A program made the translations under genes and the position numbers. 64,000 nt of DNA from Escherichia coli (GTDB lineage Bacteria; Pseudomonadota; Gammaproteobacteria; Enterobacterales; Enterobacteriaceae): NCBI RefSeq assembly GCF_024223415.1, contig NZ_CP100500.1; one strand, written 5' to 3'. Of the stretch, positions 6,141 to 18,971 are shown piece after piece (position 1 is the stretch's first letter; every line of letters begins with the position of its first letter). The notes beneath the pieces are model-generated. The model did no database searches, was not told where the DNA came from, and was given only the letters and a program-made list of their open reading frames with translations.

Positions 6141-6700
6141 TTACATTTCAGGTTGCGTTATGACTGTCCCAGCGGGGTGATAGCGGTAGATCGTTGACAG
6201 TCCAATATCATAGATAATTACCAGCCGCTTTCTGTCATACCCTTTCTGGAGCAATCTTGCGATCTGCTCATGCTGCTCCTTCGTCAGTTTCGGGCGACGC
6301 CCTCCAACTCTCCCTTGTGCTCGCGCAGCAGTCAGTCCTGCCAGCGTGCGCTCAACTATCAGTTCACGTTCCATTTCTGCCAGTGCACCCATCATATGAA
6401 AAAAAGAACCTTCCCATCGGAGTGCTGGTATCGATTAAATCCGTCAGACTGCGAAAATTGACACCTTTTGCGCGTAGCTCTTCTGTGAGCGAAATGAGGT
6501 GTTTCATTCTTCTACCCAACCGTTACAGCTTCCAGACCACCAATGTATCCCCTCTTTTAAGGCACCTTAAAGCGCGTTTCAGGCCTGGTCGTTGCGACTT
6601 AGTTCCGCTCATTTGTCCTCAAAAATTTGTTCACATCCTGCGCACATTAATACATTGCGTTTTGGTCATTTGTTGACACACGTATGTAGCCAATCAGCAT
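6141..6700 (-). pseudogene. gin: Gin/Pin-family serine DNA invertase, inactivated
   Basis: Translation gives MLIGYIRVSTNDQN, CAGCEQIFEDK, RPGLKRAL..GDTLVVWKL, HLISL..GRFFF and the C-terminal HTH in different frames; in-frame TAA, a 7-A homopolymer frameshift (6399-6405) and further indels. Confidence 0.8.
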
Positions 6701-6770
6701 CAAAAACACTCCCTTTTGAGTGGTTAAAGTAGTGAGATAATGTGGGGAAGATTTGAGAGATAACCCGCCC

Positions 6771-6803
6771 CCGCAATATCGCATTTAACTATATTGTGAG
6801 GGC
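6771..6803. repeat. 33-bp inverted repeat, copy A
   Basis: CCGCAATATCGCATTTAACTATATTGTGAGGGC; 31 of 33 identical to the reverse complement of 7437-7469. Confidence 0.7.
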
Positions 6804-6815
6804 GCGTGATACCGT

Positions 6816-7430
6816 TCAGCCAGCAAGCGCCAGTGGCGCTTCCGGCCAGCTGATTTCAGGTGCCTTGCTGATATCCAGTGCGTTCAGATCGTCGATATAA
6901 TCCAGCACGGCATTCAGTTTTGCCGTTTCTTCTGGTGTCAGACTGCGACCTGCCCGCAACTTAAGGTTGATGAGGTCGATGGACTTCATCGCCTGATCCA
7001 CCCGTTCCTGGCGTTGCTGTCTGGCAACCTCCAGCTCTTCGGCTTGCTGCCGTTCTGTATCGGTTACCCACGCCTCACCGTTCCAGGTATCCCATGGTGT
7101 GGCAGGCTGTTTTGTCGTTGTCCCTTCCGGGTAGTCACCTGGTTGGGTAATCTGGACCGGATTACCGTTCTCTGTGCTGTATACCGTCTCTCCACGATGA
7201 TCGGGGACATACTCCCACCCGTCCAGCGTGGACGTCCGGCAAATCACGTAACCCGGCATTGCCTCTGGCGGGGCATCGGCGCATGAATGTGCCGGGGTAC
7301 CCACCCCCAGGGCCAGATACTCCACAGAGGATGAGGTGTATTCCCGGGTTTCCTCATCATAGTGATATACAGTGATATCGCCTGCGAAAGTGGCGATACC
7401 GTTTTCATCCAGAACTGCAGTGTTACTCAT
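6816..7430 (-). CDS. tail fibre assembly protein (Mu U-like)
   Basis: 204-aa tail fibre assembly protein sequence; start ATG overlaps the tail-fibre stop (TAATG). Confidence 0.8.
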   Translation of the reverse strand: MSNTAVLDENGIATFAGDITVYHYDEETREYTSSSVEYLALGVGTPAHSCADAPPEAMPGYVICRTSTLDGWEYVPDHRGETVYSTENGNPVQITQPGDYPEGTTTKQPATPWDTWNGEAWVTDTERQQAEELEVARQQRQERVDQAMKSIDLINLKLRAGRSLTPEETAKLNAVLDYIDDLNALDISKAPEISWPEAPLALAG

Positions 7431-13221: not shown

Positions 13222-14102
13222 ACACTCCTCGTCAGTATTCTGGCGGCCATTGCACTTAATCGCGGAGACATGCGGTTGAATGCTGTGCCGGCGGCGTTAA
13301 GCTGCCCGGAAACGGTATCCAGAGCACCTGCAATATTTCTTTTGTCCACACCACTCAGCGCAGACTGTGCCTGCTGTATATACGTGGCTGCTTCGCTGGC
13401 TGTTCTGGCCAGACTGATGGCATCGGGCATGGATTCAGAGAGTGCATTAAATGCCGGCACACTTTTCCCCAGAGCGCCGGATATATTACCCAGTCCGCTC
13501 ATCAGTCCCGGCACACGGGTCAGCGCGACAACGGGGTTATCCTTCATTTTCTGCGCCACCCGAACGGCACTGATGGTGGTCTGGAGTACAGACTGCGCCT
13601 GTTTCGCATAGTTGACACCGTTGCGGATGAACTGTGCCCCCCCGGAAGGCGATGGAACGGCACCAGATACGGCCCCGGCACCGGGAACCTGCCTGCGTAT
13701 TGCCGGTGGTTTCAGGGGATTCTTCGGGTCACCGGTGTATTCCCGGAGAGACACGGTTGCGCTGACAGCCAGTACGTTGCCGGTACTGTCAGTCTGCTCG
13801 CTGGTTGCAGTCACATCGGTAATCACGAACCAGGCGCGATAGTCACCGTTGCCGAAGACCAGCGCCAGTGCCTGATGGGCTTTCATGGCTGCCCGAAGTC
13901 TCGCCAGCTCCACGTCGGGCACACAATAATGCTGATGGAAGACCAGACTTATCTGGATTTCGTCCAGCCTGTCGCCGACGAACTGCAGACCGGGCTTACT
14001 CCCGATGCGGGCATGCTCCGCATAATCGACGCCAGACGTGGCCTCGAAGCCGTCCCAGTAGGTAATCAGCTCAAACTCAATATCACCCAGTACGGCAAAC
14101 AT
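13218..14102 (-). CDS. tail protein (P2 gpU-like / Mu N-like)
   Basis: 294 aa; immediately downstream of the tape measure gene. Confidence 0.65.
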   Translation of the reverse strand: MFAVLGDIEFELITYWDGFEATSGVDYAEHARIGSKPGLQFVGDRLDEIQISLVFHQHYCVPDVELARLRAAMKAHQALALVFGNGDYRAWFVITDVTATSEQTDSTGNVLAVSATVSLREYTGDPKNPLKPPAIRRQVPGAGAVSGAVPSPSGGAQFIRNGVNYAKQAQSVLQTTISAVRVAQKMKDNPVVALTRVPGLMSGLGNISGALGKSVPAFNALSESMPDAISLARTASEAATYIQQAQSALSGVDKRNIAGALDTVSGQLNAAGTAFNRMSPRLSAMAARILTRSV

Positions 14103-17100
14103 CAGCGGTACTCCTTACGTTGTTTCTGAGCCAGCAGACGCTCCAGCATTTTTTCCAGCTCATGCAGACTCATATTCAGGGCACCAGTCAGTCCTGCAGG
14201 CGCTGTGGTTTCCCTGCCATTGAGGAAAAACTGAGGATTAAAGCTGACCTGGATACCACCAGACGTTCCACCGCCGGTTGCAGCTGCACCACGGCCTGAA
14301 TATCCGGCAGCCAGGATTTCAGGCGAGGGGATACGGGGAATATCCGGTGCCATCTCATTTGCCAGACGTTGCCCTGGTAAAATCGATGCCCGGGTGGAGA
14401 GCGGAATAGCGGGCATGGAAGACAAACTATTGATTACGGCTCCGATCGCATTTTTAGCAGACGACATAAACCCATTGATATCGGGCAACGGCATACTGAA
14501 GCGAACACCTGAAGTGTTATCCCGTATTTCTGGCCCCTGAATGCTCACGGGCATTTTGGGGAGCAGTTCACTGGCCATTCGCTGCCCGGCCAGAGCTGCA
14601 AGCGGAGTAGTCCGCTGCAGGCCAATGGCGGCCCCCTGCGCGATATTGTCGCCAAAGACCATAAACACGCGGCTCGGCGAATGAATGCCCAGCTTTTCGC
14701 TGAACCAGCCACTGATGCTGTCACCCATTCCGGTTACACTGGATTTGAGCGACTCCCATTTGTTTTTGATACCGTTAATCAGACCATCGACAAGATGGCC
14801 ACCGAAGTCGGTAAACTTTGCCGGCAGATCAACACCAAGATATTTCATCGCAGCTGCAAAGGCTTTATAGAGCAGACCTGCCGGCGACCAGTTAATCAGC
14901 AACTTACCAGTTCCCACAATGCCGCCGTTAAAGGCTTCCTGAATGTCAGCCCAGCACTGTTTAAACCAGCTACTGATGCTGTCACCCATTCCGGTTACAC
15001 TGGATTTGAGCGACCCCCATTTGTTTTTGATACCGTTAATCAGACCGTCGACAAGATGGCCACCGAAGTCGGTGAACTTTGCCGGCAGAGCAACGCCGAA
15101 ATATTTCAGCGCAGCTGCAAAGGCTTTATAGAGCAGGCCTGCCGGCGACCAGTTAATCAGCAACTTACCAGTTCCCACAATGCCGCCGTTAAAGGCTTCC
15201 TGAATGTCAGCCCAGCACTGTTTAAACCAGCTACTGATGCTGTCACCCATTCCGGTTACACTGGATTTGAGCGACCCCCATTTGTTTTTGATACCGTTAA
15301 TCAGACCGTCGACAAGATGGCCACCGAAGTCGGTGAACTTTGCCGGCAGAGCAACGCCGAAATATTTCAGCGCAGCTGCAAAGGCTTTATAGAGCAGGCC
15401 TGCCGGCGACCAGTTAATCAGCAACTTACCAGTTCCCACAATGCCGCCGTTAAAGGCTTCCTGAATGTCAGCCCAGCACTGTTTAAACCAGCTACTGATG
15501 CTGTCACCCATTCCGGTTACACTGGATTTGAGCGACCCCCATTTGTTTTTGATACCGTTAATCAGACCGTCGATAAGATGGCCACCGAAGTCGGTGAACT
15601 TTGCCGGCAGAGCAACGCCGAAATATTTCAGCGCAGCTGCAAAGGCTTTATAGAGCAGACCTGCCGGCGACCAGTTAATCAGCAGCTTACCAGTTCCCGC
15701 GATACCGCCGTTAAAGGCTTCCTGAATGTCAGCCCAGCGCTGTTTAAACCAGCCACTGACTGCCCCCCAGTTGCGGTAGATAAGGTAAGCTGCTGCCGCG
15801 ACAGCGGTGATAACGAGACCGATGGGATTCATCATCAGCGCCCGGCCAATCCAGAGAACGGCACGCCCGGCGATCATAATGCCGCGAACCAGTCCCCCGG
15901 AGAGCACACCACCCAGTGTTCTGACTCCTCTGGCGACGGCACCAAAGCCGGTCACCAACCAGCGAAGCTTACCGCCTTCCCCCAGTGCAAGCGTCAGACG
16001 AAGCCAGTTGGTCCGGAGTAAAACAGCAGTTTTCCAGACGTTCACAAAGGGGGAAATAAGGAGATTCAGCCCCAGTTTGAGACCAATAGTCGCTATCTTA
16101 ATCGCAAGGAGCGCACTGATGAGCTTAAAAGCCCCACTGACAAATTGCGGGTGAGTCGCCACCCAGTGTTTTGCCCCCTGAATGACTGGGATCAGCTCCT
16201 GAGTCAGAGAAATAAAAGAAGGGGCGAGCTGATCGCCCAGCGTAATAGCCAGATCGCGACTGCTGACCATAAGCGCTTTAGTGGCTTCAAGGGGAGATTT
16301 CAGCCGCTGATCGTAAGCACTGGCAAGCAAATCGTTATCCGCAGCCCTGAGAGCACCGGCACGGATCTCGCGATATCTGTCCATGTTGGCCAGCATCGGG
16401 CGGATAAATGCCATGACCTGCATATCCGCGAACATATCGCCCAGACCAAAGTTTTTCGCCAGAGCCTGAAGTGCCTCATCTCTTGCCGTATCATTCTTTA
16501 TTTTCATGGCGGATTTGAAGCCGGCCAGCGCTTCGGGGCTTTTGGCATTGAGGTAACGTTCTATAACACTCAACATCCCTTCAATCGGAGAGATCCCCGC
16601 AGCCTTATAACTCGCAACAGAACCCTGCAAATCAATACCCAGATCAGCAAACTGTTTCTGAGTATCGCGGGCAAAAATTTTGGTAAGAAAGTTTTTAAAA
16701 TTATTGGCTGCTTCGTCGGTGGAGCCCGCACCGATTTTTGCTACCTGGAGACTGGCCCCGATTTCAGCAACAGCCTCTTTTCCACTGGCAATACCCGCCA
16801 TCATTGGGGCCAGGGACTGCATCCACTTGACCTGATCCGGGATTTCAAATGACCCCTGGTCACCGGCATAAGCCATAATATTCTGGACGGCACTAAAATC
16901 TCTGGCGGCACCTTTCAGGGAGTTTTGCCAGACTGCGGCCACTTTTGCCCAGTCCTGAGATGACGTGCGTGTTGCCGTTGCCGCGCGGGCAATATCCGGC
17001 ATCAGAAAACCGATATCTGACAAGTTATCAATATTGTCGCTGATGAGCGAACCCACCGCCTCCTGCAGTTCATCCTGATACTGATTGTATTTTAGCGCCC

Positions 17101-17575
17101 AGCCTTTTATCTGTCCGGCAAGTGCATCCCGCGTTTTATTGTCATATTTTGCGGTGATCGACATATCAATCATTTTGTCCTGAAAAGACATGGACTGCTG
17201 AACGGCAGGGGAAACCGTATGATAAACAGTCTGTGCCATGCCATACGCTTCAATCCCCTGACCATACAGCGCCATGCGGTTAGCTTTCAGCGCATCACTG
17301 GTGGCTGATGCCGCTGACAGACGGCGCTGCTGGCGCTCAATTTGCTCCATGGTGCGGCTTACCCGCAGCAGCTCGCTGTTGAGATGCTGCATCCGGGAAG
17401 AGCCCAGTTGACCATAACGTTCTGTTGCACGGGTTAAAGCGTTCTGACGTTCCTGCAGGCGGCGTGAGGTATCGCTCAGGGAATCAAGCGCACGGCGGGT
17501 ACCGCTCATTGCAGAACGGAATGTGCTGCCAATCATCCCGCCGATAACAACGCCGACTGAAAACTGTCCCGACAT
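14102..17575 (-). CDS. tail tape measure protein with five tandem 87-aa repeats
   Basis: About 1157 aa; coiled-coil N-terminus, hydrophobic core, repeated WFKQCWADIQEAFNGG... unit; start taken at ATG 17575 with GGAGG RBS (track ORF extends to 17635). Confidence 0.85.
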   Translation of the reverse strand: MSGQFSVGVVIGGMIGSTFRSAMSGTRRALDSLSDTSRRLQERQNALTRATERYGQLGSSRMQHLNSELLRVSRTMEQIERQQRRLSAASATSDALKANRMALYGQGIEAYGMAQTVYHTVSPAVQQSMSFQDKMIDMSITAKYDNKTRDALAGQIKGWALKYNQYQDELQEAVGSLISDNIDNLSDIGFLMPDIARAATATRTSSQDWAKVAAVWQNSLKGAARDFSAVQNIMAYAGDQGSFEIPDQVKWMQSLAPMMAGIASGKEAVAEIGASLQVAKIGAGSTDEAANNFKNFLTKIFARDTQKQFADLGIDLQGSVASYKAAGISPIEGMLSVIERYLNAKSPEALAGFKSAMKIKNDTARDEALQALAKNFGLGDMFADMQVMAFIRPMLANMDRYREIRAGALRAADNDLLASAYDQRLKSPLEATKALMVSSRDLAITLGDQLAPSFISLTQELIPVIQGAKHWVATHPQFVSGAFKLISALLAIKIATIGLKLGLNLLISPFVNVWKTAVLLRTNWLRLTLALGEGGKLRWLVTGFGAVARGVRTLGGVLSGGLVRGIMIAGRAVLWIGRALMMNPIGLVITAVAAAAYLIYRNWGAVSGWFKQRWADIQEAFNGGIAGTGKLLINWSPAGLLYKAFAAALKYFGVALPAKFTDFGGHLIDGLINGIKNKWGSLKSSVTGMGDSISSWFKQCWADIQEAFNGGIVGTGKLLINWSPAGLLYKAFAAALKYFGVALPAKFTDFGGHLVDGLINGIKNKWGSLKSSVTGMGDSISSWFKQCWADIQEAFNGGIVGTGKLLINWSPAGLLYKAFAAALKYFGVALPAKFTDFGGHLVDGLINGIKNKWGSLKSSVTGMGDSISSWFKQCWADIQEAFNGGIVGTGKLLINWSPAGLLYKAFAAAMKYLGVDLPAKFTDFGGHLVDGLINGIKNKWESLKSSVTGMGDSISGWFSEKLGIHSPSRVFMVFGDNIAQGAAIGLQRTTPLAALAGQRMASELLPKMPVSIQGPEIRDNTSGVRFSMPLPDINGFMSSAKNAIGAVINSLSSMPAIPLSTRASILPGQRLANEMAPDIPRIPSPEILAAGYSGRGAAATGGGTSGGIQVSFNPQFFLNGRETTAPAGLTGALNMSLHELEKMLERLLAQKQRKEYR
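14640..15750 (-). repeat. in-frame tandem repeat, 261-bp unit, about 4.5 copies
   Basis: Antisense ORFs at 14685, 14943, 15204 and 15465 are near-identical; sense strand repeats an 87-aa unit. Confidence 0.7.
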
Positions 17576-17650
17576 AGTGGTTAACCTCCGGGGAAGGTGA
17601 AAAGACGTGAGGGGATAACGCAGAACAGCCGCCACTGGCGGCTGTCTGTA

Positions 17651-17735
17651 CTACGATTTGTCGCCGTACTCGCTTTTGATTTGCTCTTCAGCCTGCTCCA
17701 GCCACATCTCCAGATCGTCAGTATCGAGGGCATCA
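17651..17735 (-). other. frameshift extension of the tail assembly chaperone (+1, equivalent to -2, frame)
   Basis: Overlapping ORF 17651-17908 is offset by +1 from the chaperone frame; a GGGGG run lies just before the chaperone stop. Confidence 0.5.
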
Positions 17736-18068
17736 ATCTCCCCCGGCTGAAACCGGAACCATCTCGCCAGCAGCCCCTGCGCCTGCGTCAGCGCCCTGGT
17801 TGCTCTCACCCATCCCCGTGATGAGCTGAAATCGTTTCTGTAACTGCAGGTAATCAGCCAGATCCATATTGTCGAGATCTTCCGGGAGAAGACCAGTACT
17901 GCGGGCAATCAGCGGTTCGTCCCAGTCTGCCGGGTTTTTGCTGATTTTGCGCACCTGCTTCAGGTCTTTTACCGTCAGGCGTTTCAGTTCAACCTGCTCA
18001 ATTCTGGTGCCTGCAGCAGTGGTGAAGGGATAAGACAATTTAAAAGTATCGGATGGGGTCTGTGACAT
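17733..18068 (-). CDS. tail assembly chaperone (P2 gpE-like)
   Basis: 111 aa; sits between tube and tape measure genes as in P2/Mu tails. Confidence 0.7.
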   Translation of the reverse strand: MSQTPSDTFKLSYPFTTAAGTRIEQVELKRLTVKDLKQVRKISKNPADWDEPLIARSTGLLPEDLDNMDLADYLQLQKRFQLITGMGESNQGADAGAGAAGEMVPVSAGGD

Positions 18069-18165
18069 GATTGTGCTCCTGTGTAAGTTCAGGGCAGTAT
18101 GTCGGGAGAAGCGCGTGACGGATATTAAAGGAGATTAAGAAGAAGGGGCCGGAGCCCCTGTGATG

Positions 18166-18449: not shown

Positions 18450-18971
18450 TCAGCCTCCGATATTGATACGGTAGTCAGTCAGTTGATCAACGCCACCGAC
18501 GCGGAAGATGTTAGCCAGGTAGTCCAGTTGCAGCAGCTCTTCACCATCCAGTACCTGTCTGATATACGTGCAGGTGAAGCTACTGGAGAACTCGGCGTTC
18601 TCGTGCTGTTTGAACGTCCCCAGCGGGTTCTTCTTGAACATAATCGTCAGGAAGGTGACCAGCGGGATTTCGTCAATCAGCCCCTGCGAGCTGTAGCGCT
18701 GGACGCTGGAGCGACACTGCAGTGCCAGAGACCTGTACGGGTTCGCGACAGACAGCATCGCATCGCGGTAAAAGCTGTTCCATTTGATTTCGCCTTCCAG
18801 TTTGTCAAAACCAGCCGGGAGTTCCACCTTACCCACCATCCCCAGCGCCTTGTGTTCCTGCATAATCATGGAGACATCGGGGAGTTTAACTTCCTCAGCC
18901 CGTCCCAGCAGGTTAGTACCATCCAGATAGATGTTGGCATTCGTGATGCGGTTTATCTCAATCTTTGACAT
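18450..18971 (-). CDS. major tail tube protein (Mu M-like)
   Basis: 173 aa; start overlaps sheath stop (ATGA). Confidence 0.8.
   Translation of the reverse strand: MSKIEINRITNANIYLDGTNLLGRAEEVKLPDVSMIMQEHKALGMVGKVELPAGFDKLEGEIKWNSFYRDAMLSVANPYRSLALQCRSSVQRYSSQGLIDEIPLVTFLTIMFKKNPLGTFKQHENAEFSSSFTCTYIRQVLDGEELLQLDYLANIFRVGGVDQLTDYRINIGG

Follow-up and report, generated by a model that had tools for sequence, protein, structure and literature searches.

Frameshifted tail chaperones belong to the textbook knowledge on phages. In lambda, the functional paradigm, gpG and gpGT are produced in a fixed ratio, the short form and the N-terminal part of the long form bind the tape measure protein and the extension binds the tube protein (PMC5009743). 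Phage P2 produces gpE and gpE+E' of 91 and 142 amino acids (aa) from the operon FI-FII-E-E'-T by a -1 tandem slippage on U_UUU_UUG (U6G), and E' is made there exclusively as part of the fusion (GenBank annotation; PMC3931495). Marks of the P2 pair are also that tail assembly requires both products and that virions contain neither. Programmed +1 shifts in tail chaperones are already known from other phages as well (PRFect paper; HSTV-2). In the present study a tail chaperone gene was analyzed in a stretch of 64,000 nucleotides (nt) of Escherichia coli DNA (contig NZ_CP100500.1), hereafter the window, where the open reading frame (ORF) of a 111-aa chaperone overlaps a second ORF. This second frame holds a conserved extension of the chaperone, which is presumably reached by a +1 slip of the P-site tRNA-Phe at UUU_C (17831-17828), a reading to which we assign a probability of roughly 0.8 and which would give a 138-aa fusion resembling E+E'.

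Judged by domains and gene order, the closest characterised homologue of this locus is gpE/gpE+E' of P2, and Mu is an analogue only. Both P2 and the window have a Phage_TAC_7 N-terminal domain, joined in P2 to an extension of the Phage_P2_GpE family and in the window to one that probably belongs to this family, and in both the gene is situated between tail tube and tape measure in a contractile-tail operon. The product sizes correspond (111 and 138 aa in the window), the shift, proposed in the case of the window, falls on the Phe codon that closes the TAC domain, a linker of about 20 residues then leads up to a W/F-x-x-P-S/G-E-L/I motif, and the extension overlaps the chaperone 3' end without a conserved start and ribosome binding site of its own. 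The two systems differ in the recoding itself, as the slip in the window would be +1 at a bare CGA_UUU_C with no T6G, and pairwise similarity is marginal and found in E' alone (E 0.03). From lambda G/GT the window differs in protein family, in shift direction and in site, which in lambda is a -1 site on G_GGA_AAG.

The chaperone gene and the overlapping frame

All coordinates are positions in the window, and every gene of this locus is encoded by the minus strand. The arrangement described in the first-pass annotation was borne out when the ORFs were listed and translated. The frame-0 chaperone ORF, coding for the gpE-like short product of 111 aa, runs from an ATG at 18068 to the stop TGA at 17735-17733, is preceded by the Shine-Dalgarno (SD) sequence AGGAG at 18080-18076, and shares 176 nt with a second ORF of 85 aa (17908-17651, TTG to TAG). 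Since codons start at positions 2 mod 3 in the chaperone gene and at 1 mod 3, one nucleotide further 3' on the minus strand, in the second ORF, the second frame is +1 (equivalent to -2). Gene order, taken from ORF listing and annotation, likewise placed the chaperone between the tube and tape measure genes.

The proposed identity as a tail assembly chaperone held as well, with a match to Pfam Phage_TAC_7 (PF10109, E 8.3e-22), which is described as 'tail assembly chaperone proteins E, or 41 or 14', and one to phrog_166 'tail protein' (E 3e-33). The conserved TAC_7 domain (residues 8-81; 17826..18047, minus strand) would be common to both products up to Phe80. A sequence search of the PDB gave no match, and NCBIfam gave none for the chaperone, the +1 ORF or a neighbouring 93-aa ORF. 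The region is 97% identical to the isolated Escherichia phage PhiKM, classified under Bcepmuvirus, and about 82% identical to the isolated Klebsiella phage KP12; it was found in 636 of 5426 complete E. coli genomes (about 12%), mostly at an identity of at least 99%. The prophage carries Mu-like head and transposition modules. The locus is best explained as a chaperone pair of the gpE/gpE+E' type in an E. coli prophage that resembles BcepMu in having a Mu head and a P2 tail. The Prokaryotic Genome Annotation Pipeline (PGAP) annotates the 111-aa 'phage tail assembly protein' alone and adds in some genomes a 52-aa 'GpE family phage tail protein' in +1; the fusion is annotated in none of the records inspected (RefSeq, PhiKM, KP12, BcepMu).

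Conservation of and selection on the +1 extension

The +1 ORF matches phrog_8286 (E 8e-34), and when the conceptual fusion was used as a tblastn query, diverged phages were matched in two pieces corresponding to the two frames, with identities of 51% in Salmonella, 46% in Ralstonia and 39% in Pasteurella. To a wider set belonged 170 loci with a recognisable N-domain, which were gathered from two IMG/VR scans with chaperone alignments and from phage and genome records, and in which the extension was located by a hidden Markov model of the extension. The first-pass annotation had named beforehand, as an outcome that would speak against it, a downstream frame not conserved in related phages; the E' domain was found in the +1 frame at 162 of the 170 loci, in -1 at five and not at all at three.

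Site-wise variability and codon differences were analyzed in 58 unique enterobacterial sequences that could be aligned without gaps, and in all 58 the +1 frame is free of stops. The phase of variability switches along the gene: upstream it is the third positions of frame 0 that vary, downstream the first positions of frame 0, which are the third positions of +1. Pairwise codon differences gave the same picture, with a nonsynonymous fraction in the N-domain of 0.53 in frame 0 and 0.90 in +1, the only part in which frame 0 is under purifying selection, as against 0.92 in frame 0 and 0.22 in +1 over the 13 codons that overlap the end of the chaperone ORF. After the shift region the nonsynonymous fraction of the frame-0 tail amounts to 0.83-0.92, and this tail of the short product (QLITGMGESNQGADAGAGAAGEMVPVSAGGD; 17733..17825, minus strand) is of low complexity, unconstrained and of varying length among relatives. 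A Trp codon of the +1 frame six codons past UUU is invariant, and the frame-0 codon overlapping it varies between M, L and V. Two IMG/VR contigs otherwise near-identical to the window (L028, L029) carry a CAG-to-TAG nonsense change that truncates frame 0 at residue 90 and is synonymous in +1 (ACC AGG to ACT AGG); they amount to a natural experiment by which the frame-0 tail is shown to be dispensable. By these comparisons the overlap of the +1 extension is confirmed as more than chance and as being under purifying selection in +1.

The Pfam family Phage_P2_GpE (PF06528) matches the extension of the window weakly (E 0.015-0.036) and 12 of 24 diverse homologous extensions at E<=1e-3, the best at 4e-10; BLASTP aligned the extension with residues 107-133 of P2 E+E' at E 0.03. 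On the strength of these matches the extension is probably a P2 GpE'-type domain, the core of which (LARWFRFQPGEIDALDTDDLEMWLEQAEEQIKS) was assigned in the +1 frame to 17672..17770 of the minus strand by PF06528 and by comparison with P2 E+E'.

Two further ORFs of the region were considered and rejected. One is an ORF in the -1 frame that runs on for 152 nt beyond the stop; this frame lacks conservation, its nonsynonymous fraction being 0.87-0.97. An antisense ORF (17597-17821, plus strand) fails by register, for the variable positions are its first codon positions, and the Pfam and PHROG matches of the region belong to the minus-strand +1 frame.

Taken as comparative evidence, these data strongly support that a conserved overlapping extension of the chaperone gene is reached by ribosomal frameshifting. 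The programmed frameshift put forward in the first-pass annotation is thereby upheld as to the shift into the +1 frame, but not as to a slip at the run of five G near the chaperone stop.

Position of the shift

In several lineages (L148, L109) frame 0 ends 5-7 codons after a conserved Phe codon, and in Ralstonia, Pseudomonas and several metagenomic lineages (L109-type) a stop closes the +1 frame three codons before this same codon, so that the shift has to occur within about nine codons. The intersection of these permissive intervals begins 3 codons ahead of UUU and reaches about 5-6 codons past it, and motifs within it were counted in 112 unique +1-type sequences. The only conserved feature in the intersection is TTT_C, an in-frame TTT followed by C being present in 111 of the 112. 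The codon after TTT (CGC 39, CAG 36, CAA 15, CGG 11, CGT 4, CTG 1, CGA 1) always begins with C; the residue after Phe varies between Gln, Arg and Leu, and the first base of its codon is constant. The Phe codon itself is never TTC, not even in the 40 contexts from loci with a guanine plus cytosine (GC) fraction of at least 0.58. As a control, a conserved Phe elsewhere in the chaperone gene is TTC in 43 of 61 cases, among them all 11 from high-GC loci, and TTT accounts for about 23% of the other Phe codons in long ORFs of the loci with GC>=0.58.

Among the enterobacterial sequences CGA, a rare Arg codon in E. coli, precedes TTT in 58 of 58, and the third positions of both codons have zero entropy, compared with H values of 0.5-1.9 at neighbouring third positions. 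Outside the enterobacterial phages UUU_C is flanked by UCC, GCC or UGG upstream and by CGN as A-site codon, as in BcepMu, which reads UCC_UUU_CGC. Relatives of the -1 type have TTT_A or no Phe at the homologous position. In the window the proposed shift site CGA_UUU_C, the coordinates of which were verified, occupies 17828..17834 of the minus strand, about 90 bases upstream of the run of five G. Its CGA (17834-17832) would stand in the E site and its UUU (17831-17829), the codon of Phe80, in the P site; the C (17828) is the first base of CAG.

Several observations weigh against a slip at this site. One +1-type relative (L170) lacks UUU_C and has the linker CTT CAG GGG CTT CTT CGG. Sites of the UUU_Y type go with a slowly decoded 0-frame A-site codon, either a rare codon or a stop. 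The A-site codons found here, CAG or CAA in the E. coli and other enterobacterial relatives and CGC, CGG or CGT in the others, are none of them obviously rare in the host, and CAG and CAA do not appear to be rare or 'hungry'. RNAalifold found no covarying structure in seven diverse sequences (-2.3 kcal/mol), the segment of the window folds no better than its shuffles (z -1.5), and neither an SD-like stimulatory element nor an Rfam match was found; the efficiency of the frameshift may accordingly be very low. Codons 7-11, between UUU and the +1 Trp, show a clear constraint in neither frame. Moreover, the evidence for the site is comparative throughout, and the counts overstate the number of independent observations, because related sequences share ancestry.

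The absence of clear frame preference in codons 7-11 also leaves room for a +1 slip at another codon of the unconstrained linker in this E. coli lineage, for instance at GGG_A (17816-17813) ahead of the +1 Trp, in which case UUU_C would have been conserved for other reasons. Such a GGG_N occurs in the permissive interval of 51 of the 112 sequences, and tRNA-Gly(UCC) could read GGA after a +1 slip. Codon 11, however, is Ser, Thr or Asn (AGC, ACC, AAC) in 18 of 58 close relatives with an unchanged +1 sequence downstream, and a slip in the linker would leave unexplained why TTT is never TTC, why C always follows in all lineages and why CGA is invariant. This alternative is thus regarded as unlikely, though it fares better than the others considered below.

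Proposed recoding event and its products

Standard decoding of 18068-17733 would give the 111-aa chaperone. In a minority of ribosomes the peptidyl-tRNA-Phe on UUU (17831-17829) in the P site would slip one base forward onto UUC, where the invariant C at 17828 would permit perfect re-pairing with the GAA anticodon, the wobble pair being improved by the change from UUU to UUC. The slipped ribosomes would then continue in +1 through the extension (17651..17827, minus strand; 58 aa, SSSRGW...EYGDKS) to the stop TAG at 17653-17651. The predicted fusion of 80 + 58 = 138 aa, complement(join(17651..17827,17829..18068)), would comprise M1-F80 followed by SSSRGWVRATRALTQAQGLLARWFRFQPGEIDALDTDDLEMWLEQAEEQIKSEYGDKS, with the junction peptide ...LQLQKRF-SSSRGWVR... 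and the P2 GpE'-type domain as C-terminus. If the roles known from lambda G/GT and P2 E/E+E' apply here, the tape measure protein may be coated by the N-domain of both products, and the fusion, as the rarer of the two, may recruit tube subunits via its extension, at a fixed low product ratio that would be set by the efficiency of the slip.

The ribosomal nature of the slip, its location at UUU_C, its low efficiency and the roles of the proteins are inferred from these comparisons. The geometry of the frames rules out a -1 shift, and at CGA_UUU_C re-pairing after a -2 shift is impossible. A low-efficiency site working by slippage only would fit the finding that no downstream structure, SD-like element or Rfam family was detected, and low efficiency would be expected of a fusion needed in small amounts. 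That CGA in the E-site position enhances the slip is a conjecture. Transcriptional slippage was rejected, since no homopolymer exceeds five nucleotides and the conserved element is TTT alone.

Independent translation of the +1 frame as an unlikely alternative

Without any frameshift, the +1 ORF might also be translated on its own by initiation inside the chaperone gene, which would yield the 52-aa 'GpE family phage tail protein' (phrog_8286). Some annotations, from PGAP and from phage annotators, do list this ORF as a coding sequence (CDS) in its own right, and in the window a GTG of the +1 frame at 17810-17808 is preceded by GGGGA. This GGGGA is situated just 3 nt from the GTG, however, and among 107 unique contexts an ATG, GTG or TTG with an SD-like motif upstream of E' was found in 13, and an ATG plus SD in four; start positions are not conserved. 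Together with the exclusive expression of the homologous E' of P2 as E+E' fusion, this makes an internal start quite improbable.

The run of five G

The run GGGGG noted just before the chaperone stop is indeed present at 17744-17740 (minus strand), where the chaperone 3' end reads GCC GGG GGA GAT TGA. A Mu-like -2 (or +1) slip on GCC_GGG_GGA_G would produce a fusion of about 139 aa (...VSAGG-EIDALD...), with the junction ...VSAGGEIDALDTDDLEMW (...PVSAGG-EIDALD...) after -2 and ...PVSAG-EIDALD... after +1. By its position the run would allow ribosomes to slip into the open +1 frame, a tRNA-Gly decoding GGA could pair anew with GGG at -2, and the -2 frameshift of Mu gp41/Mu_56, on CGG_GGG_CGA, was reportedly verified by Xu, Hendrix and Duda in 2004.

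Against this stands, first, that frame 0 often ends before the run is reached. This applies to 20 of the 58 enterobacterial sequences, and six more stop 10-21 codons earlier; in KP12-type sequences frame 0 ends with GTT TAG, 18 nt upstream of the run, and in other relatives the stop comes a further 15-21 codons before that. Counted from a conserved DY anchor, the first frame-0 stops among relatives fall on codons 15, 17, 21, 31, 36 and 38, the last being that of the window. Second, the run is missing from many relatives that keep the same +1 extension: in those of the Salmonella, Ralstonia, Pseudomonas and BcepMu types, CCC AGT GAA or CCG AGT GAG takes the place of CCG GGG GAG, and the variants at this position comprise CCT GGG GAG, CCA GGG GAA, CCG GGT GAG, CCC AGT GAA, CCG AGT GAG and CCC AAT GCC. 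In the extension the run is part of Pro-Gly-Glu inside the conserved GpE' domain and sits within the most strongly +1-constrained stretch, LLARWFRFQPGEID. Third, a slip here would leave out the most conserved part of GpE' (LLARWFRFQP), which is +1-constrained and lies upstream of the run.

Nor did the analogy with Mu hold. Mu and the window have in common an extension in the +1/-2 frame, a tail chaperone of a myophage whose gene is flanked by those for tube and tape measure, and a run of five G near the end of the 0-frame gene. In Mu, however, this run (CGG_GGG_CGA) is the shift site, located at the start of the extension within an overlap of 35 nt, whereas in the window it lies inside the extension domain, is not conserved and is read in another codon register. 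The Mu protein has no detectable similarity to that of the window (BLASTP E 36), and the Mu locus remains below the threshold of the N-domain aligner. A slip at the run is consequently held to be very improbable, slightly more so than an internal start, and a reporter construct spanning 17733-17790, as had been suggested, would likely exclude the shift site (17834-17828).

Some sequences from Logan assemblies (L173-L178; proteins P0003-P0007) have four instead of five G and join frame 0 directly to the distal extension (...VSAGEIDAL...). They are probably homopolymer sequencing errors and not real alleles, as the contigs are short and other genes on them are broken too. Natural in-frame fusions of 138-144 aa, from a set of 5.8 billion proteins, were tried as evidence on the junction and rejected, for their junctions fall at many positions, G5-to-G4 deletions among them; they come from fragmented Logan assemblies in which other genes are broken as well, and were put down to indels or sequencing errors.

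Least probable of all is prophage decay, with the overlap left over as a relic and the extended product neither made nor needed: many E. coli prophages are defective and some database entries have indels here, but purifying selection on +1 is strong across genera, the sequence is near-identical in the isolated phages PhiKM and KP12 and widespread in E. coli genomes (the 636 of 5426, mostly at >=99% identity), and the indel variants derive from fragmented, error-prone assemblies.

Neighbouring features

The tail tube gene (18450..18971, minus strand), presumed partner of the extension domain, and the tail sheath gene (20398-18971, minus strand) precede the chaperone, and the tail tape measure gene (14102..17575, minus strand), presumed client of the chaperone, follows it with an ATG at 17575 that matches the PGAP start. 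The extension stop is separated from this ATG by a gap of 76 nt, in which folding indicated a GC-rich hairpin (ACAGCCGCC-AGU-GGCGGCUGU) at 17625..17645 of the minus strand, and the segment 17660-17570 has a minimum free energy of -29.8 kcal/mol (z -4.05). KP12 has a similar hairpin with another loop at that place. The hairpin may be an attenuator or an element of mRNA stability.

Within the tape measure gene, 14703-15759 (minus strand) contains four near-perfect tandem copies of a unit of 261 base pairs (97% matches), coding for an 87-aa repeat. Tape measure homologues in RefSeq differ by exactly two repeat units (3474 vs 2952 nt), which suggests that the copy number, and perhaps tail length, varies between strains.

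Between the tube and chaperone genes lies the 93-aa ORF (18447-18166, minus strand), which matches phrog_1239 (E 6e-48) and weakly DUF7739 and is followed by a GC-rich, terminator-like hairpin at 18144-18159. It is moron-like, being present in PhiKM and KP12 and absent from a Salmonella relative (L006).

Discussion

The chaperone of the window is a variant of a well-known phage device and not a new kind of system, and a frameshifted chaperone is as such ordinary here, given that frameshifted tail chaperones are textbook knowledge. Differences within the family concern the site. Five relatives (L008, L150-L152, L155) reach the same GpE'-type extension by a -1 shift, with G_GGA_AAG near the frame-0 stop, and this heptamer occurs in these five only. 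Taken with U6G of P2 and UUU_C, the recoding sites of one chaperone family would therefore number at least three. In the literature covered, which did not extend to Xu et al. (2004) and Christie et al. (2002), no paper was found that names UUU_C for these chaperones. Going by two literature entries (PMC5581363, PMC12029163), the family may also have acquired an unexpected second use.

The same motif is known from other systems. UCC_UUU_CGU is the +1 site of influenza A PA-X, as shown by mass spectrometry (PMC3498833), and UUU_CGN is the +1 motif of amalgaviruses (PMC5052127). These sites, as well as UUU-pyrimidine sites in E. coli, share with the window a P-site UUU followed by C and the re-pairing to UUC proposed for it, and sites of the types UUU_Y and UUU_CGN would also share the low efficiency and the lack of an obligatory downstream structure. 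The UCC_UUU_CGC of BcepMu-type relatives is nearly the PA-X cassette. In the eukaryotic UUU_CGN cases, however, a rare CGU or CGN codon in the A site is thought to give the pause, whereas the A-site codon of the window is the common CAG; and unlike in those sites, the conserved flank of the window is the upstream CGA.

In BcepMu (AY539836), gp41 is the homologue of the chaperone and gp42 that of the +1 extension ORF. The record treats gp42 as the equivalent of lambda G, with slippage from gp42 into gp43; our comparison would instead point to a slip at UCC_UUU_CGC by which gp41 and gp42 are joined. At BcepMu 6603-7364, much of the gp43 region is covered on the other strand by an ORF that the record does not list, and the C-terminal part of this ORF resembles a small membrane protein. 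On visual inspection, the stretch from the extension to the tape measure gene in relatives from Ralstonia, Pseudomonas and Pasteurella (L007, L010, L008) looks similar.

It is somewhat likelier than its opposite that UUU_C serves as a stimulator-free programmed +1 signal throughout a large clade of gpE-type chaperones from phages of Enterobacterales, Burkholderia, Pseudomonas and Ralstonia. If this is true, the minimal cassette (UCC_UUU_CGN) would be the same as in eukaryotic RNA viruses, e.g., influenza A PA-X, and recoding within one family would have switched repeatedly between -1 (U6G, G_GGA_AAG) and +1 (UUU_C).

For annotation it is of consequence where the shift lies: the 138-aa product is missing from the RefSeq, PhiKM, KP12 and BcepMu records and, where present, is split into spurious small CDSs. 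A conspicuous homopolymer beside a stop codon need not be the recoding site. The chaperone family offers a natural comparative series, -1 at two heptamers versus +1 at UUU_C, which would be useful for asking what minimal sequence is sufficient for a low-level programmed +1 shift in bacteria.

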